Positions 7,243 through 46,644 of a DNA stretch of 64,000 bases are shown here, piece after piece; position 1 is the first letter of the stretch, and the number at the start of each line of letters is the position of its first letter. The translations under genes were made by a program, and so were the position numbers. The notes beneath the pieces are model-generated. The model was not told the origin of the DNA. It saw nothing but the letters and a program-made list of their open reading frames with translations, and did not search any database. Source of the stretch: an uncultured Actinomycetes bacterium (GTDB lineage Bacteria; Actinomycetota; Thermoleophilia; RBG-16-64-13); NCBI GenBank assembly GCA_937148845.1, contig CAKZRW010000066.1, forward strand, positions 92-64,091. The letters are read 5' to 3'.

Positions 7243-7763
7243 TGGAAGAAGCTATGTCGACCCCTGAGCCCACCCCAGACTCGCCGCTGCCGGGCCCGCG
7301 CCAGCTTACGCTGACCGAGGGTTCGCTCTGCCTGGGCACGGCGGAAGTTGTCACCCGGCGCCTGCAGTTCACCACAACGGGGGACGCGGACATGGTCAAC
7401 CTCACTCAAGGCGTACGCCAGGCCGTGCGAGAAAGCGGCCTGCGCGCCGGTCTCGTGACTATCTTCGTGCCCGGAGCCACCGGGGCTGTGACCACTCTTG
7501 AGTTCGAGCCCGGCGTGGTGAAGGATTTCCGGGCGTTGTTCGACCGTGTCGCCTCTCCTACTGAGCACTACTACCACAACGACACCCACCCCGACTGCAA
7601 TGGTCACGCCCATGTCCGCGCGGGGCTGCTGGGACCCTCATTGGTGGTCCCGTTCGAGGAAGCTGAACCCTGCCTCGGCCACTGGCAGGAGATAGCTTTT
7701 GTCTGCTTCGACAATCGGCCTCGGCAACGCACGGTCATCCTGCAGCTCATGGGAGTGCGCTGA
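7239..7763 (+). CDS. YjbQ/UPF0047 family protein (secondary thiamine-phosphate synthase-like)
   Basis: VNLTQGVRQAV..SGLRAGLVTIFVPGATGAVTTLEFEP...GHAHVRAGLLGPS...GHWQEI is a typical YjbQ motif string. The ATG overlaps the upstream stop (ATGA). Confidence 0.85.
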   Translation: MMEEAMSTPEPTPDSPLPGPRQLTLTEGSLCLGTAEVVTRRLQFTTTGDADMVNLTQGVRQAVRESGLRAGLVTIFVPGATGAVTTLEFEPGVVKDFRALFDRVASPTEHYYHNDTHPDCNGHAHVRAGLLGPSLVVPFEEAEPCLGHWQEIAFVCFDNRPRQRTVILQLMGVR

Positions 7764-7838
7764 CCATGAACACCTTACGACCACTTGCACCAGGGAGACC
7801 CCGCCATAGCCTTGATCCACACAGGAGGGGGAGGGCCT

Positions 7839-9125
7839 ATGAAACCAGTACTCCAGCTCGCTCTTGATTTCGTCGACCTTCCGCGCGCACTGCAGGTAGC
7901 CGAAGAGGCTGTCGCCGGAGGGGCGGACTGGCTCGAAGCCGGCACCCCCCTCATCAAGAGCGAAGGTCTCCAGGCTGTGCGTGAACTCAAGGCCCGCTGG
8001 CCCGACCATGTGATCGTCGCCGACATGAAGACCATGGACGCAGGTCGAGCCGAGGTGGAATACGCAGCCAAGGCAGGAGCCCGGGTAGTGGGGGTCCTGG
8101 GTGCCGCCTCGGATGCCACTATCCGCGAGTGTATCGAAGCGGCCCGCAACTACGGAGCCGAGATCGTTGTAGACATGATCCAGGTGGCAGACGTCGTGGA
8201 ACGGGCGAAAGCAGTCGAGGAGATGGGCGCGAGCTACATCGGCATCCACATCGCCATCGACGAGCAGATGCGTGGTCAGACGCCCTTTGCTCTGTTGGAG
8301 CAGGTCGCCCGGGCGGTCACCCTCCCCGTGGCCGTGGCAGGAGGTATCAACTCGGAGACGGCACCTCTTGCCATCCAGGCAGGGGCTAGCATCGTGGTGG
8401 TAGGAGGGGCGATCATAAAGGCCGCCGATGCTACAGCGGCCACCCGCACCATCAAGCAGGCCATGGAGACCCTGACCCCCGTCCGCTCGGAATACTTCGT
8501 CCGGGCCACCGGGCCCGATTTACGCGAGAAGCTTGCGCGAGTCTCAGCGGCGAACGTCTCCGACGCTCTCCATCGTGCAGGAGACATCCCCGGCCTCCAC
8601 CCCCTCACCCCCGGTTCCAAGCTGGTCGGGCCCGCTCTCACAGTGCGCACTTATGCCGGCGACTGGGCTAAACCCGTGGAAGCGATCGACAAGGCCGCCC
8701 CGGGGGACGTGATCGTGATCGACGCCGGGGGAATCGGGCCGGCGGTGTGGGGAGAGCTGGCCACCCACTCGGCCCTCCAGCGCAAGGTGGCCGGGGTGGT
8801 GATCTACGGTGCCGCCCGCGACAGTGGGGACATCCGGGCCCTTGGCTTCCCCTTGTTCTGTTCTCTGGTGTCCCCGACGGCAGGCGAACCTAAGGGCTTC
8901 GGGGAGATCGGGGTGCCCATACGTATTGCTGGAGTCCGGATTTGCCCGGGCGACTGGATCATCGGGGACGATGACGGAGTGTGCGTGATACCACGGGAGA
9001 AGGCGCTGGAATACACGAACCGGGCCATGGATGTCCTGGAAAGGGAGAACCGCTTGCGCAAGGAGATACAGGAAGGCAGTACCTTGAGCCAGGTGGGGTA
9101 TCTCCTCCGCTGGGAGAAGCGCTAG
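7839..9125 (+). CDS. Fusion of 3-hexulose-6-phosphate synthase-like (OMPDC family) and RraA-like domains
   Basis: The N-terminal half, MKPVLQLALDF....WLEAGTPLIK...VADMKTMDAG, is HPS-like. The C-terminal half, ANVSDAL...GPALTV...GDVIVIDAGG..AVWGEL...GVVIYGAARD, is RraA-like. GGAGGGGGAGGG lies upstream of the ATG at 7839. Confidence 0.8.
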   Translation: MKPVLQLALDFVDLPRALQVAEEAVAGGADWLEAGTPLIKSEGLQAVRELKARWPDHVIVADMKTMDAGRAEVEYAAKAGARVVGVLGAASDATIRECIEAARNYGAEIVVDMIQVADVVERAKAVEEMGASYIGIHIAIDEQMRGQTPFALLEQVARAVTLPVAVAGGINSETAPLAIQAGASIVVVGGAIIKAADATAATRTIKQAMETLTPVRSEYFVRATGPDLREKLARVSAANVSDALHRAGDIPGLHPLTPGSKLVGPALTVRTYAGDWAKPVEAIDKAAPGDVIVIDAGGIGPAVWGELATHSALQRKVAGVVIYGAARDSGDIRALGFPLFCSLVSPTAGEPKGFGEIGVPIRIAGVRICPGDWIIGDDDGVCVIPREKALEYTNRAMDVLERENRLRKEIQEGSTLSQVGYLLRWEKR

Positions 9126-9231
9126 CCGTCTGGAAATCCGATCCACCGGCTGCTGTCAGGCGCGTCGGCTTGGGCACGCTTTCTCTGGCTACCCACTGTG
9201 TGTTCCTCCAGCCGGAAGCCGCCTGGTCGGC

Positions 9232-10257
9232 CTAGGGTACCTCCACCACTAGGCTGTCTATCAAGCGCGTCTCCCCGAACCGGACGGCCAGGGCCAGTAG
9301 ACACCGGCCTCGCAGCGTTTGCACCGGCTGGAGGCTGTCAGCATCCACCACTTCTACGTAATCGATCACCGCTAGCGGAGCCGTATGGACGATCTCGGAG
9401 AGACGGCGGACAATCACTTCCGCCGCCCGCTCGCCCCCTTCGACCAGGTGCCGGGCCTCCTGCAACGCGGCGAAAAGCACCGGCGCCTGCTCCCGCTGGA
9501 CCTTCGTGAGGCGAGTGTTGCGCGAGCTGAGAGCAAGACCGTCTGCCTCCCGCACTGTGGGACAGCCCACTATCTCCACGGGAAGATTCAGGTCCCGGGT
9601 CATGCGCCGGATCACGGCCAGCTGTTGGAAATCTTTTTCGCCGAAGTAGGCACGGTCGGGGCTGCAAATAGCGAAGAGCTTGGCGACCACGGTGCATACT
9701 CCCCGAAAATGACCAGGACGGGAGGCACCGCACAAGTGGTCGGTCAACCGCTGGACCTCTACCCAGGTGGCGAAACCGTCCGGATACATCTCTGCCACCG
9801 AAGGAGCGAAAACCAGGTCAGCGCCGGCCTGCCCCGCCACCTGGCGGTCGTGTTCCAGAGTGCGGGGATAGGTAGCGAGGTCGCGCCGGTCGTCGAACTG
9901 GGTGGGGTTCACGAACACGGAGACTACGACCAGGCCGTTCTCTGAGCGGGCCCGGCGCATAAGAGAGGCGTGACCATTATGCAGAGCCCCCATGGTGGGC
10001 ACCAGACCTACACTTAGACCGCTGGCGCGGGCAGCTGCAACTTGTGAGCGGAGCTCCACGATGGTTTCCACGACGCGAGCCGGGCGGGTGGGGACATCCG
10101 GCCCTTCGGGAGTGCACGACTCGGCAGGCCCCCCCGGCGCGGCAAGCGGAGCGGTCCCAGAACGAGGTCTCAGGGTTTCTTCGTCCCCGAGGGCGCTCGC
10201 TCCACCGCTTCCATCCTCATACGGCATCCCAGTTCCCGACCTCGCTTCCCGAGTCAT
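9232..10257 (-). CDS. panC: Pantoate--beta-alanine ligase with a ~65-aa N-terminal low-complexity extension
   Basis: PTMGALHNGH, VSVFVNPTQF and FGEKDFQQ motifs. The start overlaps the upstream stop (ATGA). Confidence 0.9.
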   Translation of the reverse strand: MTREARSGTGMPYEDGSGGASALGDEETLRPRSGTAPLAAPGGPAESCTPEGPDVPTRPARVVETIVELRSQVAAARASGLSVGLVPTMGALHNGHASLMRRARSENGLVVVSVFVNPTQFDDRRDLATYPRTLEHDRQVAGQAGADLVFAPSVAEMYPDGFATWVEVQRLTDHLCGASRPGHFRGVCTVVAKLFAICSPDRAYFGEKDFQQLAVIRRMTRDLNLPVEIVGCPTVREADGLALSSRNTRLTKVQREQAPVLFAALQEARHLVEGGERAAEVIVRRLSEIVHTAPLAVIDYVEVVDADSLQPVQTLRGRCLLALAVRFGETRLIDSLVVEVP

Positions 10258-28142: not shown

Positions 28143-28327
28143 GCCCAGATTCTAGCGCAAACCCGGGTGCCGATAGAGGCCGGAGTTCCGGCTGGCAGAC
28201 TTCTGACTTGACAGCACGAAAGACGACACCCAAAATACGCTGATGTGCCTGCAGCTCGACATAGAGGCACACGGAACGTTCAACTGGCGACCCGCCCGGG
28301 TCGCCGCGTAATGTATGGGGGGTGCGC

Positions 28328-28612
28328 ATGCTCCATGAACCCGCAAATGTCGTGACAGGAGTCGATGAGGCCGCAGCATACAAGAGGCGCCTCGGTCTTT
28401 GGATGTTGGCCGTCTACAGCGTCCTCTACCTCGTCTTCATCATCATCAATGTGAGCGTGCCCAAGACCATGGGCGTCATGGTGGTGGCAGGGCTGAACCT
28501 CGCGATCATCTACGGCTTTGCGCTAATCGCCATAGCTTTCATTCTGGCCATCATCTACAACTGGCTATGCACTAGGCACGAGAAGTCGTTCGAGACCGAG
28601 GGAAAGGCCTGA
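28328..28612 (+). CDS. yjcH: DUF485 (YjcH-like) small membrane protein
   Basis: Two TM helices, placed immediately upstream of actP as in other bacteria. GGGGGG lies 7 nt before the ATG. Confidence 0.8.
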   Translation: MLHEPANVVTGVDEAAAYKRRLGLWMLAVYSVLYLVFIIINVSVPKTMGVMVVAGLNLAIIYGFALIAIAFILAIIYNWLCTRHEKSFETEGKA

Positions 28613-28613
28613 G

Positions 28614-30587
28614 ATGGGTGAAATCAAGCCTCTCGCGATTGTTCTCTTTCTTGTCATCGTTGGGCTTATGCTCGGCATCTCGTTCTATACAGCACGCAGA
28701 GCCCGGTCCGCGAGTGGTTACTATGCGGCTGGTGGACGTATCCACTGGGGTGTCAACGGCATAGCATTTGCCGGTGACTACCTCTCGGCGGCTTCCTTCC
28801 TCGGCATCTGCGGGATGATCGCCACGGCTGGTTATGACGGGTTCCTGTATTCCATCGGCTATCTGGCAGGCTGGGTGGTAGCTCTATTCGTGGTGGCCGA
28901 GCCGATGCGGCGTTTGGGTCGCTATACCTTCACCGATGCGCTCGACGCCAAGTTCAACAAGCGCGGCCTTAAGTTGATGGCGGCACTAGCCACCTTGATC
29001 GTTTCCATCTTCTACCTGATCCCCCAGATGGTGGGAGCAGGAGTGCTGATCGAACCTCTACTGGGACTACCTTATTGGGCAGGCGTGGTGCTGGTGGGCG
29101 CTATCGTGATCACGATCGTCGCCACCGCGGGTATGACCTCTACCACCTATGTACAATTCATCAAGGGCGCCTTGCTCATTGTTTTCACGCTGGTCATCAC
29201 CGTTGCGTTGTGCGTACGCGGTCTCTCCACCACTCCGGACCAGGGCGGAAGAGTGCCCTTCTACGAGTACAAGACGATCACTGCCACTCAGACAGCAGAA
29301 GGAATCGAGCCTCAAGACCCCAGCTACAAGGCAGTCGATCAGTACGACCTCAAGGTGAAGGACAAGGTCACAACGTTCGTCAAGCTGGAAAAGGATGGCA
29401 TCGCCACCTGGTGGAAGGCAGACATCAAAGATGGCACCATCACCCTGCACGAGACGCAGGAAGTGGTCATCAAAGCAGATGGGACCAAGTGGATCAACGG
29501 GGCTCCCGCCTCAAAGGACAACAAGCTGCGTCTAACAGGGAACCTGAGCAAGATAGCTGGCGAGGAAGATGTCAAGACCGGAGCCCTCAATCCTTTCCGC
29601 TTCCTTGCCCTCATAGGTGACCCCGACAGCACTGTCAACCTTTGGAAGAAGGCCGGCTTCACTCACGCAGGAGAGAGCGTCACCATCTACTACGAACACC
29701 CTGTCCCTGGTGACACGGTGACCCGGCCAGGGCAGATGTTCAAGCTCGAGGGTTCTGCGCTAGACAGAATCGACTTCTTCTCCTTGATGCTCGCCCTTTT
29801 CTTCGGGACTGCAGCGCTCCCGCATATTCTCATCCGCTACTACACCGTTCCCAGTCAGCGAGCGGCCCGTAAGTCCACGGTGGTGGCCATCGCCGCCATC
29901 GGATTCTTCTACATCTTGACCCTCTTCTTAGGGCTGGGGGCAATGGTGAACGCTACAGTCAACCCGGCCGACAACAATATGTCAGCGCCGCTGTTGGCTC
30001 AGTCTTTTGGTACTTTCCTCTTTGCCATGATCTCGGCAATCGCCTTCGCAACCGTGTTGGGTACGGTGAGCGGCCTTATCATCGCGGCGTCAGGCGCAGT
30101 CGCACACGACCTGATGGACCGGTTCGGCGGGCTGATCAAGAACGAACGTCAGAAAGTCATCGCCGGACGAGTCGCCGCCTTCTCTGTTGGGGGAGTGGCG
30201 ATCCTTCTGGGTATCGCCTTCCATGGAGTCAACGTCTCCTTCTTGGTGGGTCTAGCGTTCGCCGTCGCTGCTTCTGCCAATCTCCCCTGTATCCTTATGA
30301 TGCTCTTCTGGAAGCGCACGACTTCCAAGGGCATGATCGCCTCTATAATCGTCGGCATCGTCGTGTCGGTGGGCATCATCCTCTTGTCCCCGACCGCTTG
30401 GGAGCTCTACGGACTGGTGCCAGCTGATGCCCCGATACCCTTCAAGAACCCGGGTATCTTCTCGATCCCGGTCAGCTTCATCACCATCATCCTGGTCTCC
30501 CTACTTACGAAGCCGGACATGGTAGACGAGCACAAGCTGCCCAGCTCTCCTAAGTCAGTACCTGCGCCTGCACCAGCCTCCGAATAG
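28614..30587 (+). CDS. actP: Cation/acetate symporter ActP (SSS family) with a large loop insertion
   Basis: YYAAGG, FAGDYLSAASFLG, GTAALPHILIRYYTV and the SSS topology. 657 aa, versus about 550 as I recall for E. coli ActP. Confidence 0.88.
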   Translation: MGEIKPLAIVLFLVIVGLMLGISFYTARRARSASGYYAAGGRIHWGVNGIAFAGDYLSAASFLGICGMIATAGYDGFLYSIGYLAGWVVALFVVAEPMRRLGRYTFTDALDAKFNKRGLKLMAALATLIVSIFYLIPQMVGAGVLIEPLLGLPYWAGVVLVGAIVITIVATAGMTSTTYVQFIKGALLIVFTLVITVALCVRGLSTTPDQGGRVPFYEYKTITATQTAEGIEPQDPSYKAVDQYDLKVKDKVTTFVKLEKDGIATWWKADIKDGTITLHETQEVVIKADGTKWINGAPASKDNKLRLTGNLSKIAGEEDVKTGALNPFRFLALIGDPDSTVNLWKKAGFTHAGESVTIYYEHPVPGDTVTRPGQMFKLEGSALDRIDFFSLMLALFFGTAALPHILIRYYTVPSQRAARKSTVVAIAAIGFFYILTLFLGLGAMVNATVNPADNNMSAPLLAQSFGTFLFAMISAIAFATVLGTVSGLIIAASGAVAHDLMDRFGGLIKNERQKVIAGRVAAFSVGGVAILLGIAFHGVNVSFLVGLAFAVAASANLPCILMMLFWKRTTSKGMIASIIVGIVVSVGIILLSPTAWELYGLVPADAPIPFKNPGIFSIPVSFITIILVSLLTKPDMVDEHKLPSSPKSVPAPAPASE

Positions 30588-30661
30588 GAAGCGGCCTGGT
30601 GCACGCGTGACCACACCCGAGCCAGCGAGCGCCGGGGTCGGGTGAGGTCACTGGGTAAACA

Positions 30662-30699
30662 AGAAGGCCGGTGCCGGATGAATCCGGCACCGGCCTTCT
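30662..30699. terminator. Bidirectional terminator hairpin between convergent actP and the satP fusion
   Basis: AGAAGGCCGGTGCCGG-loop-CCGGCACCGGCCTTCT, a 16-bp perfect stem flanked by A/T-rich runs. Confidence 0.75.
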
Positions 30700-30717
30700 G
30701 CTGTTCCGACCCGTGGT

Positions 30718-31773
30718 CTAGAAAACGTCCTTGGGACGCAGCGGGTAGCCGGTGTATCCCGCGGTCGCGTAGTACACGGCCCGGTCGAAGAAGCGACCGA
30801 GTTCGCGGTTGAGGTCGACGGCCCGCTGGAGATCCATCGCAGATTCCCACACACCATGGGTACGCGCGGTCATCCAAATCTCCCGCTTGAGAAGAAGAAT
30901 AGCGCTCACAAGCTCCGGCAAAGGCAGACCCTGCGCAGCCCTTGTGGCTCCAAGCTTATGGAAGAAACTCCCAATGTCAGCCTCACTGGGTTTGCCGCTG
31001 AAATACTCTTGCACTTGCTGAAGGGCAAACTCGCTGGCGCCGACCAATTCCTCGTCGCTCACCACACCATAGGAAGGTGTCTGCGGACTCGCCCGCAGCG
31101 CCTCCAACCACATCCTCGCGATTTCCTCGCCATACTCTTGAACGAAATTTCTGGGAAGCTGGCTGATGGGCCCCAAAGGTAGGACGACCCGCTTGTACGT
31201 CTCATTGAGGATCTGAGCCATAGCCGTGTAGATAGCAGCCAAGCCGGTCAATATCCCTTCCCAGCCGGCGATCTTGCCCCAGACAGCGCCTCCACCAAAA
31301 TCACGGACGGCAAGCAGGAAGAACAGGACGGTGAGCAATCCGAAAACGACCTGCAAAGCCCTATTAAGCTTCAGTGTGCCGATAAACATGTATAGGGTGA
31401 AGAGACCCCAAAACACGAAATACCAAGCCAAAGAGGTCTCGGATGGCTTCGCAGCTGCGCCAGCCTCCGAGAACACGGCCGGGAACAGCCAGATGCCAGC
31501 AAGCGTCAGCCAGAAAAGACCATATGAAGTGAAGGCCAGGGTCCCGAAGGTATTATTCTTCTTCCATTCCATGACCCCCGCGATGATTTGAGCCACTCCG
31601 CCGTAGAAGACGCCCATCGCCAAGATCATTGCGTTCAGCTCGTAGAACCCGGCGTTGTGAATGTTCAAGAGCACCGTGGTGAGACCGAATCCCATCAGCC
31701 CCAAAGGTGCCGGGTTGGCGTTGGTATCAAGTAACTTTGCGACCGTCTCGGTCGACACCACTGAATTAGCCAT
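30718..31773 (-). CDS. SatP/YaaH (GPR1/FUN34) acetate-succinate channel fused to an RsbRD_N-like cytoplasmic domain
   Basis: The first ~195 aa align residue by residue with E. coli SatP ([42 protein letters not shown]). An extra ~155 aa has an [23 protein letters not shown]-type motif. Confidence 0.8.
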
Positions 31774-32781: not shown

Positions 32782-32825
32782 GTCGGACTGGACTTCTTAA
32801 ACTCATCTAGACGAAGGAAGGGGCC

Positions 32826-35768
32826 TTGGTGATTACCGAGCAGACTGGTCTGAGCGCTCTGCGCACCACCCGGAGTTTTGTTCTACGTATCGTCTTACCC
32901 GCAGCTCTTGCGGTAGTCCTTTTCGTCTTGGTTACCTTCTTACTCCTCATCCCTGCCGTCGAAGATCAGATGATGGAGGGGAAGAAAGAGACCGTCCAGG
33001 AACTCACACGCTCCGCGATCAGCATCATCAAAGAGTTCTACGCCGACGAGCAGGCGGGGAAACTGTCGCGCGAAGAGGCGCAGGCCGAGGCCGCCCGCCG
33101 AGTAGAACTGCTGCGTTGGGGCGACGAAGCGAAAGACTACTTCTGGATAACCGACATGACTCCGGTCATGATCATGCACCCTTATCTGCCTGAACTCAAC
33201 GGGCAAGACCTCTCCGCTTACCAGGACAAGGCTGGACACCGGCTTTTCGTTGACATGGTCAACGTCGTGAAAGCACAAGGTGCCGGCTATGTGAGCTACT
33301 ACTGGCAGTACAAAGACGACCCTGGTCAGGTCGTAGAGAAGGTCTCTTACGTGGAGAGATTCGCGCCTTGGGACTGGGTGGTCGGTACTGGGATCTACCT
33401 TGACGAGGTGGAAGCCGCCATAGGAGCTGTACGAAGAAACCTGATCTACGCCTCTGTCGCTATCGCCGTCCTCGTGGCCCTTCTCCTTTTCTACAGTAGT
33501 CGGCAAAGCCTAGCGATCGAGAGAAAACGAGCCCTCGCGGAACAAGCGCTCAAAGAATCCCACGAGAAATATCGGGCGCTGGTGGAAGCCGCCACAGAGG
33601 GTCTTCTGATTGTGATCGGGGGAAGGACGACCTACTCCAACAAGCCCCTGGCCGATGCACTGGGGTATCCAGAGAGTGCGCTCGTGGACATGGAGATCAG
33701 TCGCCTTTTCTCAGCCGAAGGCACTGATTCCAAAGCGTTCGAACTGCTCCGCTCCGGGGCAACAGAGGGTATGCCGGCCACCTTTGATGCACGCCTCAGG
33801 ACCAAGGACGGCGAGGCCGTGGACGCTCTGGTCACGTCCACGCCTATCTCCCTGGGAGGCAAAGCCGGCTTCATTCTCCTTGTGAAAACCCTGACATCCC
33901 GCAAGGCGCTGGCTGCCGCCCTGGAGGAGACCCGCAGGCAGTTCCGCGACATGTCTGATGCTCTGACCCTGGGCGTGTTTCGCAGTACCTGGGGCCGCAA
34001 AGCAGCACTCCTTGAGGTCAATCCCGCTGTGCGCTCTATCTTGGGCCTACCGATGGCCGCGGACATCGTGGGTTCTGACTGGCTCGAACGCATCATCGAC
34101 CCGGAGCAAAGGAACGCCTTGGTCGAGACTCTCAACCGAGACAAGACCGTCCAGAACTACCACCTAGGGCTCAGACGCGAGGACGGTAGTCGCGTGGATG
34201 TCTCGCTTTTCGCCGTCCTTGTGGAAGGTGAGGGTGGTCACCCACTCTACCTTGACGGCATCATGGAGGACATTTCGAAGCAGAAGCGCCATGAGCAGGA
34301 ACGCGAGGCCCTCATCGCCCATCTGCAGACCACACTCTTCTTCTTGCGCGAACCCGTATCCCAGGCCATGACACCGGCGCTTACAGTCGACATGAATGAG
34401 AGTGTTGTGCGGACAGCGATCCTCATGAAGAAACGAGGAGTGTCAGCCGCCTATGTGACCGGGCCGGACGGAACCTTGCTCGGCGTGGTGACAGACCATG
34501 ACTTCAGAGAAAGAGTAGTGAGCGAAGGTCTCGAAGCGCACAGTCCTGTTCATCTGATCATGAGCGCACCTCTCATCTCGATACCTGCTAGCGCTCCCAT
34601 ATATGAAGCACTCACCCGGATGCACGAGCGTCACGTCGACCACCTCGCGGTAGTGGACGAAATCGGGAGACTACTGGGTACGGTCCATCTGCGCGATCTG
34701 GCTCACTCGCAACAATCATCCTCGGTCATCATCACCGACTCTATCCGACGGGCACGGAATATCGGGGAGATAGTCGATGCCCATGACCGTCTGCCAGCAT
34801 TGGTAAAAGCGGTCGTGGATTCGGGCGCTGACACGCGGTTCGTAAACCGGATAATCTCCGGCGTCTCCGACGCCGTGGTCGAGCGTCTGGTAGAGATGGC
34901 CATCGAAAGACTGGGGCCCGCTCCGGTACGGTTCGCCTTCCTGGCCCTAGGAAGCGAGGGGCGAGAAGAACAGACCCTACTCACCGACCAGGACAACGCC
35001 ATCATCTATGAAGACCCCGAGCCAGAGCAGGCTAAGGAGGTAGCGGACTACTTCCTCAATCTGGGAACCCTGGTCTGCGACTGGTTGGATCAGGTGGGTT
35101 ATCGTTACTGCGAAGGTGGGATCATGGCGAAAAATGCGCGTTGGAACTTACCACGCGCAGTCTGGAGGCAGCAGTTCTCTCACTGGATCCACAACGCTGA
35201 GGCCAAAGAACTCCTCGAACTCAATATGCTCTTCGACTTCCGCTGTGTGACCGGGGAGGACCACTTGGCCCGAGATCTTCGTAGCTGGGTTTTCGACCAG
35301 ATGGAGGAATACCCACTCTTTTTCCTCCATTTCGCCCAGAATGCTCTCCTTTACAAGCCGCCCCTCACCGTCTTCGGCCAACTGCAGGCTGCGACAGCTA
35401 ATGACGGAAGCAAGACTGTAAGTCTCAAAGAAATGATCATGCCCATTGTCAACTACGCCCGGCTCTATGCCCTGCGTCACCGCATCGACTCCACCAACAC
35501 TCTCGACCGTCTGACCGAGCTGTACCAGCTTGGTGCCCTCAGCCGCGAATCCTACGAGCAGATACTTCCAGACTACGAAGCCGTGATGCGCATTCGTCTA
35601 CACCGCCAGGCGATCGCAATGGAAAAGGGCGAGCAGCCGAGCAACATCGTGGCTTTGGATACCCTGACGTCAGCGGAGAAGGCCAGACTGAAGCGGCTGC
35701 TGTCTTTGTCCAGTGACTTGCGGAAGAAGATCAGCTTCGATTTCCTAGGAGGTATAGCGGGCTTCTGA
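32826..35768 (+). CDS. Membrane Cache-PAS-PAS-CBS pair-DUF294 nucleotidyltransferase protein
   Basis: TM helix, Cache-like ectodomain, TM helix, two PAS-like segments and tandem CBS. These are followed by LGSEGREEQTLLTDQDNAII (DUF294 NTase signature) and a DUF294_C-like helical domain. Confidence 0.8.
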   Translation: MVITEQTGLSALRTTRSFVLRIVLPAALAVVLFVLVTFLLLIPAVEDQMMEGKKETVQELTRSAISIIKEFYADEQAGKLSREEAQAEAARRVELLRWGDEAKDYFWITDMTPVMIMHPYLPELNGQDLSAYQDKAGHRLFVDMVNVVKAQGAGYVSYYWQYKDDPGQVVEKVSYVERFAPWDWVVGTGIYLDEVEAAIGAVRRNLIYASVAIAVLVALLLFYSSRQSLAIERKRALAEQALKESHEKYRALVEAATEGLLIVIGGRTTYSNKPLADALGYPESALVDMEISRLFSAEGTDSKAFELLRSGATEGMPATFDARLRTKDGEAVDALVTSTPISLGGKAGFILLVKTLTSRKALAAALEETRRQFRDMSDALTLGVFRSTWGRKAALLEVNPAVRSILGLPMAADIVGSDWLERIIDPEQRNALVETLNRDKTVQNYHLGLRREDGSRVDVSLFAVLVEGEGGHPLYLDGIMEDISKQKRHEQEREALIAHLQTTLFFLREPVSQAMTPALTVDMNESVVRTAILMKKRGVSAAYVTGPDGTLLGVVTDHDFRERVVSEGLEAHSPVHLIMSAPLISIPASAPIYEALTRMHERHVDHLAVVDEIGRLLGTVHLRDLAHSQQSSSVIITDSIRRARNIGEIVDAHDRLPALVKAVVDSGADTRFVNRIISGVSDAVVERLVEMAIERLGPAPVRFAFLALGSEGREEQTLLTDQDNAIIYEDPEPEQAKEVADYFLNLGTLVCDWLDQVGYRYCEGGIMAKNARWNLPRAVWRQQFSHWIHNAEAKELLELNMLFDFRCVTGEDHLARDLRSWVFDQMEEYPLFFLHFAQNALLYKPPLTVFGQLQAATANDGSKTVSLKEMIMPIVNYARLYALRHRIDSTNTLDRLTELYQLGALSRESYEQILPDYEAVMRIRLHRQAIAMEKGEQPSNIVALDTLTSAEKARLKRLLSLSSDLRKKISFDFLGGIAGF

Positions 35769-39811: not shown

Positions 39812-41200
39812 ATGTCCGAACCTTCGCCCCATACAGACTCGCTGCCGGTTCCTCGCTCCGATTCCGTGGGTCCCGATAGACCGCGACCATTGTCGATCTA
39901 CCGAGTCCTTCAGACCTGGTGGCCGCTTGCGGCCAGCTGGGTGTTGATGGGCCTCGAAGGACCGGCGGTGAGCGCGGTGGTCTCCCGGTTGCCAGAACCC
40001 AAGGTGAACCTGGCAGCTTGGGGCGGGATAGTCTTCCCCTTGGCTCTGATGGTCGAAGCTCCCATCATCATGATGTTGGCAGCTTCCACAGCGCTCTGCC
40101 GAGATTGGCCTTCTTACCTCAAGCTTCGTCGGTTCATGACTCAGCTAGGCGTGGCCCTCACTATCGTTCACCTTGCCATTGCTGCCACGCCACTTTACTA
40201 CCTGATCGCCCGTCAAGTCATCGGCGTTCCGGAAGCCATCGTCGAACCTGCCCGCTGGGGTCTACTCCTCATGACCCCTTGGACCTGGTCGATCGCCTAC
40301 CGGCGCTTCCAACAAGGGGTGCTTATCCGCTTTGGCGGTTCTCTCAAAGTGGGGTTGGGCACTCTGGTTCGCTTTACAGCCGATGCGGCTGTCCTCACCC
40401 TTGGCTATCTTTGGGGGCGTGCCCCCGGCATAGTGGTGGCCGCATGTGCCATGACTGCGGGGGTCATGGTCGAAGCTCTCTATGCTCGCTTGGCCGTCCG
40501 GAGGACTCTGCGGGAAACATTGCGCAAAGCCCCTCTTTCTCCTCGCCCTCTGAGCACCAAGGTCATGCTGGCCTTCTACATACCCTTGTCACTCACCCAA
40601 GTCCTCATGCTGGTGGTCAATCCGGTAGCCAGCGCCGCCATGAGCCGCATGCCCCACGCTCTTGAATCCCTGGCGGCGTGGCCCGTGGTCGCGGCAGTCA
40701 ACTACATCGTGAGGGGTGGCGGCGGAGCCTTCAACGAGGTAGTAGTAGCCCTGACAGAGGAGAGGCGATCGACCTGGGCGCTTCGCCGCTGCGGCTGGCT
40801 CATTGCGGCGGGCTCCACCCTCTTCCTGGGTATACTGCTGATTCCGTCTGTGTCCCGCGCTGTGTTCGCGGGCCTCCTCGACCTGGCTGCCCCCCTGCCA
40901 AAGGTGGTGTGGCAAAGTCTATTCCTTCTCGCCCCCATGCCAGCCCTAGCGGTAGCCCAGAGCTACTTCCAAGGGCTGATACTCTATGGCAGGCACACGC
41001 GCAGTGTGACCGAATCAGTCGCACTCTCACTGGTCGTCATCAGCCTGGCTCTTACCCTCGGAGTGCTCTACGGAGCACTCACTGGTATCTACGTGGCCAT
41101 AGGAGCCCTGGTGGTGGGTGACGGCTTGCGGACGGTGTGGTTATGGGCGCGGAGCCGCGCCATCCGAGCGCGGCTCCGCGCCCGCGACGATCTGGCTTGA
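39812..41200 (+). CDS. Polytopic membrane protein, MATE/MOP-superfamily-like
   Basis: About 12 predicted TM helices. The N-terminal pattern resembles MATE transporters. Function not established. Confidence 0.5.
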   Translation: MSEPSPHTDSLPVPRSDSVGPDRPRPLSIYRVLQTWWPLAASWVLMGLEGPAVSAVVSRLPEPKVNLAAWGGIVFPLALMVEAPIIMMLAASTALCRDWPSYLKLRRFMTQLGVALTIVHLAIAATPLYYLIARQVIGVPEAIVEPARWGLLLMTPWTWSIAYRRFQQGVLIRFGGSLKVGLGTLVRFTADAAVLTLGYLWGRAPGIVVAACAMTAGVMVEALYARLAVRRTLRETLRKAPLSPRPLSTKVMLAFYIPLSLTQVLMLVVNPVASAAMSRMPHALESLAAWPVVAAVNYIVRGGGGAFNEVVVALTEERRSTWALRRCGWLIAAGSTLFLGILLIPSVSRAVFAGLLDLAAPLPKVVWQSLFLLAPMPALAVAQSYFQGLILYGRHTRSVTESVALSLVVISLALTLGVLYGALTGIYVAIGALVVGDGLRTVWLWARSRAIRARLRARDDLA

Positions 41201-44651: not shown

Positions 44652-44772
44652 GACACTCCAGGATCGGCTGGGGACGTGCAGGTGCGGTAGGGTGACGCCG
44701 CGAGACACCAGCCGGAGACGCAGCGGACGGGGAAGAGACCCACACCACAGACCCGCGGGAGCCCAAGACCAC

Positions 44773-46644
44773 ATGGACATATCGGATATACCCACAGTGA
44801 CGCTCTCAAGCCCCTCTCTGGACAGGCGCGACCTCGAGCGCAAGTCCTCGGCGGTGACGCTGTCCGACATGGAGGTCTTCATCTTCCCCGAGCTCATGTA
44901 CAGCTTGGTGCTGGCCAACCTCATGTCGCCCCGCATCTGGAAGTGGCGCGATGACCCTTGGTTCGCCGACAATGCCAAGCTCACCCCGTACCGCCGCATC
45001 CTGCGGGTCAAGCAGTACATCATGGACAACTACGCTTTCAACCTCGACCTCGACACCTGGGGACTTACCCGCAAAGAGGTGGAGATCGCCCGATTCCGTG
45101 ACTGGGTGAGCGAAGAAGCCCTGGCCCAGTCGAATGCCCTGTTCGGTTACGAGGGCGACAAGTACTACTTCGACCTGGACATCCGTACCCACTTCGGCCT
45201 CGACAAATACGACAGCGAGGTCATCCCCTACTGGAAGACAGAGACCGTCGAGGCCATGGACGCGTTCCGCTACAAGCCCAACTACGAGTCGGGAGCCGGG
45301 GAATGCGTCTCTCTGGCCGCCTTGTATGCAGCCGCGCTTTTCATCGTCGCCAAGATCCCCCTGCGAGACATCTTTCTCATGGCTACGCCGCTTCACTCCC
45401 AAAACTTCGTGGACGTCGGTCAAGGTATCCTCACTAACAACCGACGGCTGGTGACCAAGAACATGTGGTTCAACGGCACCGCCCTTTCGGCGCAGGCCCG
45501 CCGGGCTTTGGAGAACGAGCGCGTGACCATCGTCGCCCACGAGTCGGGTTTCATCCACATCCTTTTCGAACGGGCCACCATCGACCCTCAGGCTTACGAC
45601 CGTTTCTCGACCAAGCTCCGCCGCTTTCTGCAGACGCCCCTCACCCCCGAGCTCTTGGGCAACTTCGTGCGGCACAGCGCCGATCTGCAGAAATGCTTCC
45701 AGGCTCGCTGGACTAACTTCGGGGTCGACCGCTACATCGCCATGGAGAAGCTCATGGCCTACGAGCGGGATTTTCCTTACCGCTTCAATGACGAGACACG
45801 GGAGCGGCTCTTCCGAGAAGTGGCAGGAGAAGACTTCGAATCGCGTCCGCTGCCTGACCGCATAATCATCAACGACTTGGAGCAGATGGTCGCCGAGCAA
45901 CAGGTGGACGTACGCACCGAAGAGGGTTTTCGCTTGCTGGTAGAGCAGCTAGCGCCCTCTTGCCCTCAGGCCCAGGACGCCATCGAGCGGCTGCGCAGGT
46001 TCTGCTGGACCGAGCCGCGTCTGCCGGATCCTTCCACTAAGACCTTCGACCGTACCCAGGCTCCGCTGGGTCTGGAAGTAGGCATGGAGCGAGGCGACAT
46101 CATCGCCCGACTCGAGTCCATACGCGGTCAGAACGAGACGGCTGAGCTCGCCTTCTATGCCTACCGAGACCTCACTCGGACCGCCGTGGAGCCGTTCCTC
46201 AAAGCAGCCTTGGAGCGCTGCCCGGTCTCTGTCGCCGGGAGCGCCGACCTGACCGACGAGGCGGTCCTAGACCTCCTGGAAACCTTCGCCGCGGAGTCCA
46301 TCTACGACGAGCCCGGTCGTTTGGCCCAGCCGGACGAAGTCTGGAACTACCGGCGCGGAGACGGCCTGGAGAAAGCCCTGCTCCTCGCCAACATCCTCCG
46401 CAATCGCCATCCGGACAGGCCTATCAGCATCGAAGTGGAACCCCAGCAGGCTATCCTGCGGGCAGGGAACCTCATCATCACCTACCCTACAAGCAAGGCT
46501 CTGCGTCCCCAACGCTGGGAGTGCGGCGCTCAAGCTAGCGGGGGCTCCAGTGGGGGCGCCGGTCAAGCCAGCCCCGCGCCGGTCTCCGCCGGCCCTACTT
46601 CTGGCCGAACGGCTGAGCCTCGGGGCCGGGCTCGCTCCCGATGA
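44773..46644 (+). CDS. Large (~620 aa) uncharacterised protein with a transglutaminase/papain-like core
   Basis: GAGECVSLAALYAAALFIVAKIPLRD...PLHSQNFVDV resembles the Cys-His-Asp core of transglutaminase-like proteins. A second, Cys-less copy of the motif lies near the C-terminus (GDGLEKALLLANILRN). Confidence 0.55.
   Translation: MDISDIPTVTLSSPSLDRRDLERKSSAVTLSDMEVFIFPELMYSLVLANLMSPRIWKWRDDPWFADNAKLTPYRRILRVKQYIMDNYAFNLDLDTWGLTRKEVEIARFRDWVSEEALAQSNALFGYEGDKYYFDLDIRTHFGLDKYDSEVIPYWKTETVEAMDAFRYKPNYESGAGECVSLAALYAAALFIVAKIPLRDIFLMATPLHSQNFVDVGQGILTNNRRLVTKNMWFNGTALSAQARRALENERVTIVAHESGFIHILFERATIDPQAYDRFSTKLRRFLQTPLTPELLGNFVRHSADLQKCFQARWTNFGVDRYIAMEKLMAYERDFPYRFNDETRERLFREVAGEDFESRPLPDRIIINDLEQMVAEQQVDVRTEEGFRLLVEQLAPSCPQAQDAIERLRRFCWTEPRLPDPSTKTFDRTQAPLGLEVGMERGDIIARLESIRGQNETAELAFYAYRDLTRTAVEPFLKAALERCPVSVAGSADLTDEAVLDLLETFAAESIYDEPGRLAQPDEVWNYRRGDGLEKALLLANILRNRHPDRPISIEVEPQQAILRAGNLIITYPTSKALRPQRWECGAQASGGSSGGAGQASPAPVSAGPTSGRTAEPRGRARSR

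Follow-up and report, generated by a model that had tools for sequence, protein, structure and literature searches.

A Cache-type transmembrane receptor with a DUF294 nucleotidyltransferase output and its linkage to phosphoesterase and carboxylate transporter genes

The 64,000-nucleotide stretch of DNA analysed here (the window; contig CAKZRW010000066.1 of GenBank assembly GCA_937148845.1) encodes a transmembrane (TM) receptor in which an extracytoplasmic sCache_2 domain is joined, via two PAS domains and a CBS pair, to a DUF294 nucleotidyltransferase (NTase) and its helical DUF294_C domain. The receptor gene directly follows a gene for a PHP phosphoesterase and lies near transporter genes, and related receptors linked to phosphoesterase and transporter genes were found in species-level genomes from more than 15 phyla. 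The arrangement is tentatively read as a switch in which a carboxylate receptor governs an NTase writer, the PHP is the eraser, and carboxylate uptake is the process controlled. More broadly, the Cache-PAS-CBS-DUF294 proteins and their interchangeable phosphoesterases may represent an unrecognised and widespread class of one-component receptors, in which an extracellular short-chain carboxylate signal is converted into a nucleotidyl mark that can be reversed, or into a new kind of nucleotide signal, and ActP-type transporters are thereby gated directly, although this wider proposal is made with the same reserve.

When read from a TTG codon, the receptor open reading frame (ORF) specifies 980 aa (Table 1). 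Cache, PAS, CBS, DUF294 and DUF294_C all scored strongly in Pfam, and hydropathy analysis (Kyte-Doolittle, 19-residue window, threshold >1.6) gave exactly two strong hydrophobic segments, one on either side of the Cache domain. Given the positively charged residues N-terminal of the first segment and after the second, the Cache domain is placed outside the cell and the N-terminus in the cytoplasm. The CBS pair is directly N-terminal to the NTase, is related to PDB entry 2yzi (E 1.7e-10), and produced Foldseek matches to CBS pairs with template modelling scores of 0.8-0.88. Histidine kinase, methyl-accepting chemotaxis protein (MCP), GGDEF, EAL and cyclase domains are absent from the receptor (Pfam, E <= 1), as is a cNMP_binding domain (Pfam), in place of which the segments TM, sCache_2, TM, PAS and PAS are found. 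This anatomy agrees in every detail with an initial annotation made from the sequence alone, including the joining of a DUF294 output to an extracytoplasmic ligand sensor, and the motifs quoted there (DYFWITD, MIMHPY, YYWQYKDD, WVVGTGIY and the GlnD-like signature LGSEGREEQTLLTDQDNAII) were all located in the translation. The public gene call gives an identical protein of 979 aa starting from a GTG codon at 32829. As the spacing of the GAAGGAAGGGG ribosome-binding site at 32813-32823 suits this GTG better, it is likely the true start.

Table 1. Positions in the window of the receptor gene, its domains and the neighbouring phosphoesterase and transporter genes.
Feature	Residues	Position	Strand	Basis
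Receptor gene: TM, sCache_2, TM, PAS, PAS, CBS pair, DUF294 NTase, DUF294_C		32826..35768	+	ORF, Pfam
TM helix 1	~19-44	32880..32957	+	Kyte-Doolittle; R13/R16/R21 on N-terminal side
sCache_2 domain, extracytoplasmic	49-202	32970..33431	+	Pfam E 5e-42
TM helix 2	~204-226	33435..33503	+	Hydropathy peak, then RQSLAIERKR (positive-inside rule)
PAS domain 1, cytoplasmic	247-353	33564..33884	+	Pfam PAS 5.9e-11, PAS_8; TIGR00229 sensory_box 2.6e-22
PAS domain 2, cytoplasmic	396-484	34011..34277	+	Pfam PAS_9 5.9e-14
CBS pair (Bateman module)	~515-627	34368..34706	+	Pfam CBS 1e-20 in two stretches
DUF294 pol-beta-type NTase core	655-792	34788..35201	+	Pfam 8.5e-47
DUF294_C helical 'substrate-binding' domain	831-973	35316..35744	+	Pfam 1.1e-32
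Partner: TrpH/YciV-type PHP phosphoesterase, 264 aa		31987..32781	+	Pfam PHP, NCBIfam, PDB
DUF485/YjcH-type small membrane protein, putative transporter subunit		28322..28612	+	Pfam DUF485 6.8e-10
ActP/MctC-like sodium:solute symporter (SSF)		28614..30587	+	Pfam SSF 3.5e-72
SatP/AceTr acetate uptake transporter		30718..31773	-	Pfam Gpr1_Fun34_YaaH 4e-37

The matches to DUF294 (PF03445) and DUF294_C (PF10335) reached 159 and 113 bits against cut-offs of 21 and 22.5, respectively. The NTase core includes the motif G709-S710-x10-D721-x-D723, i.e. Gx11DxD, and a third acidic residue, D804, lies just downstream of the DUF294 core. Gx11DxD together with a third acidic residue is the definition of the catalytic motif in GlnE/DrrA-type adenylyltransferases. 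G709, S710, D721, D723 and D804 are invariant in an alignment of 14 homologs and, barring one D723S replacement, in all untruncated sequences from 80 loci, which are the best 80 of at least 599 matches obtained in a one-genome-per-species scan. The G-S...D-x-D...D residues, the loss of which would have counted against the initial annotation, are intact and conserved.

AlphaFold2 models were generated for residues 495-980 (mean predicted local distance difference test score, pLDDT, of 88) and for residues 640-980, which cover the NTase and helical domain (pLDDT 92, predicted template modelling score 0.90). Using the 640-980 model in Foldseek, just four PDB chains were matched at E <= 0.001, and all were DrrA or GlnE. 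The best match was the AMPylation domain of DrrA bound to Rab8a (6yx5_B, E 7.9e-9, template modelling score 0.62), and those to GlnE were to its N-terminal domain (1v4a, E 1.9e-7) and its C-terminal adenylylation domain (3k7d, two chains, 2.8e-7). The NTase core and DUF294_C align jointly onto DrrA and GlnE over ~340-390 columns, with 12-14% identity between these proteins and the receptor. Aminoglycoside NTases were matched more weakly (E >= 0.014, template modelling score ~0.3), and terminal uridylyltransferases (TUTases) and the CD-NTase CdnC at E >= 0.2 (CdnC 1.5). With the longer model, the leading NTase matches were unchanged and many CBS pairs were matched in addition. Pfam GlnE (PF03710) did not match the receptor at E <= 1 and was listed for one homolog alone (P0110). 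Based on the Foldseek matches, the enzyme is grouped structurally with protein adenylyltransferases and not with RNA-tailing enzymes or cGAS-like messenger synthases, and the fold predicted by the model is the main evidence that would favour a protein target. Nucleotidylation of an unknown target, as put forward in the initial annotation, is therefore strengthened by the DrrA/GlnE fold and plausible, but the accompanying statement that this occurs rather than signalling by cyclic dinucleotides is not established.

The solved domains nearest to the receptor sCache_2 domain (HMMER against PDB) are those of PscD from Pseudomonas syringae (5g4y/5g4z, E 4e-36) and of Adeh_3718 (4k08, E 2e-33). The ligands of PscD are acetate, glycolate, propionate and pyruvate, which are contacted by seven residues (Y90, W92, H103, F126, Y143, W145 and K156), and all seven are conserved without change in the C2/C3-carboxylate sensors McpP and Adeh_3718 (PMC5062169). 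In the HMMER alignment, these contacts correspond to Y105, W107, H118, F141, Y158, W160 and K172 of the receptor, and 7/7 are identical. They are also invariant in 14 homologs at 37-75% identity to the receptor, and identical in every untruncated sequence among the 80 loci, all from other genomes. As the PscD contacts are all identical and are invariant in relatives, a short monocarboxylate is a strong prediction for the receptor ligand, and it is probable that the Cache domain binds a short C2/C3 carboxylate.

PscD, McpP (P. putida) and Adeh_3718 resemble the receptor in their homologous sensor and TM-Cache-TM topology but have an MCP signalling domain as output. Given the NTase in place of this domain, the response of the receptor would not be chemotaxis. 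The MctS/MctR and CrbS/CrbR (MxtR/ErdR) systems likewise couple carboxylate sensing to genes for ActP/MctP-type transporters, and the MctS model of NCBIfam matched the receptor Cache region, albeit far under its cut-off (4e-26). However, these are two-component systems, whereas the receptor and its neighbours include no kinase, receiver or DNA-binding domain. Some other loci (L011, 7124-9803; L015, 3103-6407) additionally encode a Cache-type sensor histidine kinase and a sigma-54-dependent response regulator. The L011 kinase has the same sCache_2 domain as the receptor, and in loci of this type two different signalling outputs may read one ligand.

The upstream PHP gene stops 44-47 nt short of the receptor start. 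Its product scored 34.3 bits for Pfam PHP (cut-off 26.4), and the NCBIfam models for 3',5'-bisphosphate (pAp) phosphatase (1e-30) and RNase RNM (5e-27) were matched at 107 and 95 bits (cut-offs 400 and 375, respectively), too low for assignment to pAp phosphatase or RNase AM as an equivalog. PDB matches were to 3e0f, 7ug9 (RNase AM, annotated '5'-3' exoribonuclease') and 2yb1 (the pAp phosphatase Cv1693). The PHP fold motifs and nine metal ligands (H9, H11, D16, H41, E66, H77, H157, D214 and H216), which are invariant, are common to the partner and these TrpH/YciV proteins. However, generic TrpH/YciV proteins carry an insert of ~50-60 aa that is missing from the DUF294-linked PHPs, whether separate or fused to a receptor (alignment A3). 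The stand-alone PHPs constitute a separate clade (46-81% identity), with many members on contigs shared with receptor homologs, and identity drops sharply to about 32-38% against generic TrpH. The missing insert hints at a changed PHP substrate.

For the 80 loci, ORFs were extracted, searched with the window proteins and clustered. In 26 loci the receptor carries an N-terminally fused PHP domain, and a separate PHP gene lies upstream in three close relatives, as it does in the window. Calcineurin-like phosphoesterases are found in 35 loci and fall into three groups that are unrelated by BLAST, Pfam-confirmed and intact in their metal motifs: cluster a is upstream on the same strand (23 loci), cluster b is downstream and abuts the stop codon (6), and cluster c is downstream on the opposite strand (6). 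An RNase T-family exonuclease is present in one locus (L005), and no partner was seen in 15. The PHP-fused homologs are ~1,190-1,260 aa in length, with the PHP on the cytoplasmic side of TM helix 1. Only PHP was found fused; none of the 384 proteins collected has a calcineurin-like or exonuclease domain fused to a DUF294 protein. In the window, CRP-like, calcineurin-like and RNase T-like genes were searched for and none was found.

In L005, the exonuclease gene is situated between a degenerate cNMP-CBS-DUF294 paralog of the classical type (7449-9970), in which the DxD motif is lost (GSEGRREAAWPPTRAG), and the Cache-type gene, with DUF485 and SSF genes following the receptor. The arrangement suggests that a pseudo-enzyme is coupled with an active counterpart.

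Given the PHP fusion and the occupation of one position by phosphoesterases of three or more unrelated folds, the NTase would need a phosphodiester-cleaving antagonist of whatever fold, and fusion together with fold replacement is strong comparative evidence for this need. The PHP is very likely a functional partner of the receptor. Among loci lacking a partner of these types, an AP_endonuc_2 TIM-barrel gene lies beside the receptor in L012 (2926-3768, minus strand, Pfam-confirmed), a gene with a similar N-terminus in L014 (3700-4674, minus strand), and an HD-domain dGTPase-like gene in L075 (12903-14246, minus strand), where there is no PHP or calcineurin-like partner. Such neighbours may represent additional replacements of the partner, or their position may be coincidental.

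Of the 80 loci, 63 have an SSF gene within 10 kb of the receptor, nearly always accompanied by a DUF485 or DUF4212 small subunit. The usual order is DUF485, SSF and (PHP-)receptor on one strand, with gaps of 8-120 bp, and in most loci there is no DNA-binding protein near the receptor. A functional link between the receptor and SSF transporters is considered likely, with good confidence. In the window, the SSF symporter, which matched the NCBIfam models MctC (1.7e-127) and ActP (6.5e-124) below their cut-offs, is the candidate for the transporter controlled by the receptor. The start of the DUF485 gene is at 28403 in the public call. The SatP protein exceeded the cut-off for NCBIfam AceTr_1 (6.8e-79) and is extended at its C-terminus by ~150 cytoplasmic residues, in which RsbRD_N was weakly matched (4.7e-5). 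Its gene is divergent from the PHP-receptor pair, and among the 80 loci a satP gene is found in the same place in L001-L004, which are Actinomycetota relatives, and in no others.

Compared with the ActP and MctC profiles, the SSF symporter includes an insert of ~165 aa (residues ~200-365), which is shared by 38 of the 56 full-length SSF genes beside related receptors, in a subfamily of ~626-703 aa. The insert was considered as a cytoplasmic target for modification with a nucleoside monophosphate (NMPylation) and dropped, as crude hydropathy counting places it outside the cell.

Around the 80 loci, no other conserved gene family was found apart from lineage-restricted extras, namely a CRP-type regulator (eight Bacteroidota loci), a probable outer-membrane protein (20 loci) and two-component systems (a few loci). 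The second of these is a conserved protein of ~380-470 aa from Bacteroidota, Ignavibacteria and other loci, the gene for which mostly follows the SSF gene. A representative (L068, 7152-8402, 417 aa) is hydrophobic and signal-like at its N-terminus and gave no Pfam match, and the protein may be an outer-membrane channel for carboxylates.

In the proposed mechanism, the extracytoplasmic sCache_2 domain would bind a short monocarboxylate, e.g. acetate, glycolate, propionate or pyruvate, and the signal would pass via TM helix 2 to the two PAS domains and the CBS pair, the last probably providing an input on the adenine-nucleotide or energy state of the cell. Sensor, PAS and CBS modules would together set the activity of the C-terminal GlnE/DrrA-type NTase, which would most likely transfer a nucleoside monophosphate (NMP; AMP or UMP) to a hydroxyl group of a protein target. 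The PHP encoded upstream would hydrolyse the resulting phosphodiester with release of 5'-NMP, and monocarboxylate uptake by the DUF485/ActP-like symporter, possibly also by SatP in this lineage, would thereby be controlled. Protein NMPylation as the chemistry of the receptor is judged an even prospect. Given the absence of a DNA-binding protein in most loci and the location of the receptor within the transporter operon, the transporter complex would be the simplest target, and direct modification of the transporter or its small subunit is in itself a minority expectation. 

The formal analogue of such a circuit would be GlnD, which joins an NTase with an HD domain, and which acts through GlnK on AmtB, a precedent for control of a membrane transporter by NMPylation. 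Similarly, DrrA is counteracted by SidD, and the same writer/eraser logic applies. GlnE (glutamine synthetase adenylyltransferase), GlnD (PII uridylyltransferase/uridylyl-removing enzyme) and Legionella DrrA/SidM each have a Gx11DxD NTase core followed by a helical domain, as the receptor does, but PHP is a different eraser fold from those of the GlnD and DrrA/SidD systems, and the receptor is membrane-anchored with an extracellular sensor. Hydrolysis of Tyr-, Ser- or Thr-O-NMP to 5'-NMP would resemble a 3'-5' exonuclease reaction in which the protein hydroxyl replaces the upstream 3'-OH, and this could be the reason that DEDD, PHP and calcineurin-like enzymes are interchangeable.

Neither the DUF294 family nor its presumed signalling by nucleotidylation is new. 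DUF294/COG2905 has been a predicted signalling nucleotidyltransferase since 1999 (Aravind & Koonin 1999, as cited in PMC5715377), and the HEPN paper classifies DUF294_C and adds nothing further on DUF294. In the classical proteins, such as PA3233 (P. aeruginosa), PP_0354 (P. putida) and Pflu5625 (P. fluorescens), a cNMP-binding domain is followed by two CBS domains, DUF294 and DUF294_C. They share the CBS, DUF294 and DUF294_C cassette with the receptor, at ~36-40% identity in the NTase region, but their input is the cytosolic cNMP-binding domain instead of the TM, sCache_2, TM, PAS, PAS segment. The classical partner is an RNase T-like DEDD exonuclease (PA3232, PP_0353), whereas a PHP is found here and calcineurin-like enzymes in other lineages. 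Induction of the classical genes depends on CrbS/R (MxtR/ErdR), whereas the Cache-type receptor has its own extracellular sensor. Both types are linked, genetically or by position, to actP/yjcH and to C2/C3 acid metabolism.

Published genetics is available for the classical type. PA3232-PA3235 of P. aeruginosa are co-induced on propionate (PMC9765439), and a COG2905 member, called 'RNAse T domain protein', was co-fit with the DUF4212 subunit of a lactate/alanine SSF transporter (Price et al., 10.1101/072470). In P. putida, PP_0354 and PP_0353 form one operon and are direct MxtR/ErdR targets, and deletion of pp_0353 resembles deletion of actP-I in that growth is impaired on pyruvate with no defect on 20 mM acetate (PMC9927547). 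A preprint of September 2026 still lists the functions of PP_0354 and PP_0353 as unknown. If the phosphoesterase mutant mimics the transporter mutant more closely than does the NTase mutant, an inhibitory mark and an activating eraser would follow, which is offered as a hypothesis only.

Several observations weigh against control of carboxylate uptake by an NTase writer and a phosphoesterase eraser. Biochemical evidence for the substrate or product of any DUF294 protein was not found in the literature, and ligand binding by the Cache domain is deduced from residue identity. The Foldseek search covered solved structures, among which a closer relative that does not modify proteins could be missing. 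No SSF gene was seen in 17 of the 80 loci and no adjacent phosphoesterase in 15; some of these are short contigs, and three of the 15 are truncated at a contig edge. The usual substrates of RNase T-like and TrpH-like enzymes are nucleic acids or nucleotides rather than proteins, and deletion of PP_0354 in P. putida has weak phenotypes. Finally, the CRP/FNR-type regulator (cNMP_binding plus HTH_Crp_2) of the eight Bacteroidota loci (L044, L052, L056, L057, L058, L064, L079 and L080), the gene for which is located between the receptor and the DUF485/DUF4212-SSF operon and divergent from that operon, would fit transcriptional or messenger control. In four of these loci (L044, L056, L058 and L064), it is co-directional with an adjacent calcineurin-like phosphoesterase gene.

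These CRP-type genes are among the evidence for a nucleotide messenger, where the NTase would make a diffusible signal (a linear or cyclic di- or oligonucleotide, or an NMP adduct of a small molecule), the partner would degrade it, and a cNMP-type receptor would switch transporter genes or activity. That the partner families include enzymes of nucleotides and short RNA (TrpH/RNase AM, pAp phosphatase and RNase T-like exonucleases), and that classical DUF294 proteins contain a cNMP-binding domain, is consistent with this possibility. It is nonetheless considered rather unlikely, as the fold matches are to protein adenylyltransferases with the messenger-type enzyme CdnC far weaker, no candidate receptor protein is encoded nearby in most loci, including the window, and we know of no pol-beta NTase of the GlnE/DrrA branch that makes a messenger. 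The exonuclease partners could also indicate that the NTase adds 3' nucleotides to the transporter mRNA or a small RNA and that the partner trims them, such that stability or translation is set. The classical partner is an RNase T-family 3'-5' exonuclease, TrpH homologs are exoribonucleases, and mRNA degradation was speculated on by the authors of the P. putida study (PMC9927547). This is improbable given that TUTases were very weak matches and poly(A)-polymerase and CCA-adding enzyme were absent among the 50 Foldseek matches listed. In addition, the receptor has no RNA-binding domain (Pfam), no conserved RNA element was found around the genes (Rfam), the DUF294-linked PHPs are without the TrpH insert, and a membrane-anchored RNA-tailing enzyme would be unusual.

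A further alternative is that the NTase-like region is a non-catalytic nucleotide-binding or scaffold module and that the gene neighbourhood reflects co-regulation alone. Pseudo-NTases exist, the classical-type paralog in L005 being one that lacks the DxD motif, and knock-outs of the classical pair are mild. However, retention of the catalytic residues across more than 15 phyla, with the single exception given above, the physical fusion of PHP in 26 loci and the swapping of non-homologous phosphoesterases at one position make this explanation very improbable.

The distribution of the architecture was assessed using several searches. A protein search gave 344 relatives at E <= 1e-10, and nearly all of the 120 relatives listed share the Cache...DUF294 domain set; the exceptions are truncated entries. 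The closest receptor relatives are from metagenome-assembled genomes (MAGs) of Actinomycetota and Thermoleophilia. The best 80 copies in the species-level scan are full-length or nearly so, with a few ended by contig edges, and almost all records are MAGs. They represent Actinomycetota, Myxococcota, Desulfobacterota, Acidobacteriota, Gemmatimonadota, NC10, Chloroflexota, Armatimonadota, Spirochaetota, Elusimicrobiota, Lentisphaerota, Sumerlaeota, Bacteroidota, Ignavibacteriota, Chlorobiota and Calditrichota. 

With the NTase region as query, an exhaustive HMMER search identified 2,805 representatives (50% identity clusters) at E <= 1e-10. The best 150 of these comprise 104 with sCache_2 (32 of which also include PHP), 6 with a cNMP-binding domain and 40 fragments or others. 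The expectation in the initial annotation that DUF294 proteins are usually cytosolic cNMP-CBS proteins hence describes only a small part of the nearest representatives, and the architecture is not an oddity. The Cache type, of which variants exist with zero, one or two PAS domains, is a major DUF294 branch that lies beyond the cultured proteobacteria on which discussions of DUF294 have centred. Database names for these proteins are generic, e.g. 'PAS domain S-box protein' or 'cache domain-containing protein'. In the literature searched, to September 2026, a substrate or product for DUF294 is not established, as the initial annotation had stated, and no paper characterises DUF294 or the Cache-type architecture. 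Likewise, no description of the Cache-type receptors, the acetate-type pocket, the PHP fusion or the series of phosphoesterase displacements was found in the searchable literature.

Three features beyond those in the initial annotation allow the system to be interpreted, namely the acetate-type pocket, the phosphoesterase partner and the linked DUF485/ActP-like and SatP transporter genes. A DUF294 circuit that can be tested is named, with a probable ligand (acetate, propionate or pyruvate), a probable eraser (PHP) and a probable process (ActP/YjcH-type uptake), and the DUF294 problem, unsolved since the 1999 prediction, becomes experimentally tractable. If the model is correct, the receptor would represent a new output type for bacterial transmembrane signalling, present in more than 15 mostly uncultured phyla, and would signal in a currency other than phosphorelay, methylation or the known cyclic (di)nucleotides. 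It would also explain the regulation of short-chain fatty acid uptake in many anaerobes and soil bacteria, and the same logic offers an interpretation of the pseudomonad PA3233/PA3232 and PP_0354/PP_0353 genes.

Elsewhere in the window, two long ORFs on the forward strand, at 39812-41200 (462 aa) and 44692-46644 (650 aa), have no Pfam match; the former is also a gene in the public record, with no domain. A scan for promoters and terminators gave counts near the shuffled expectation. No RNA element was detected between 27000 and 37000 using Rfam (E <= 1), and sub-threshold matches to eukaryotic miRNA and snoRNA families were confined to a strong hairpin at 30646-30718, between the convergent SSF and SatP genes. 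The miRNA matches at this site are spurious, and the hairpin is probably a bidirectional terminator.

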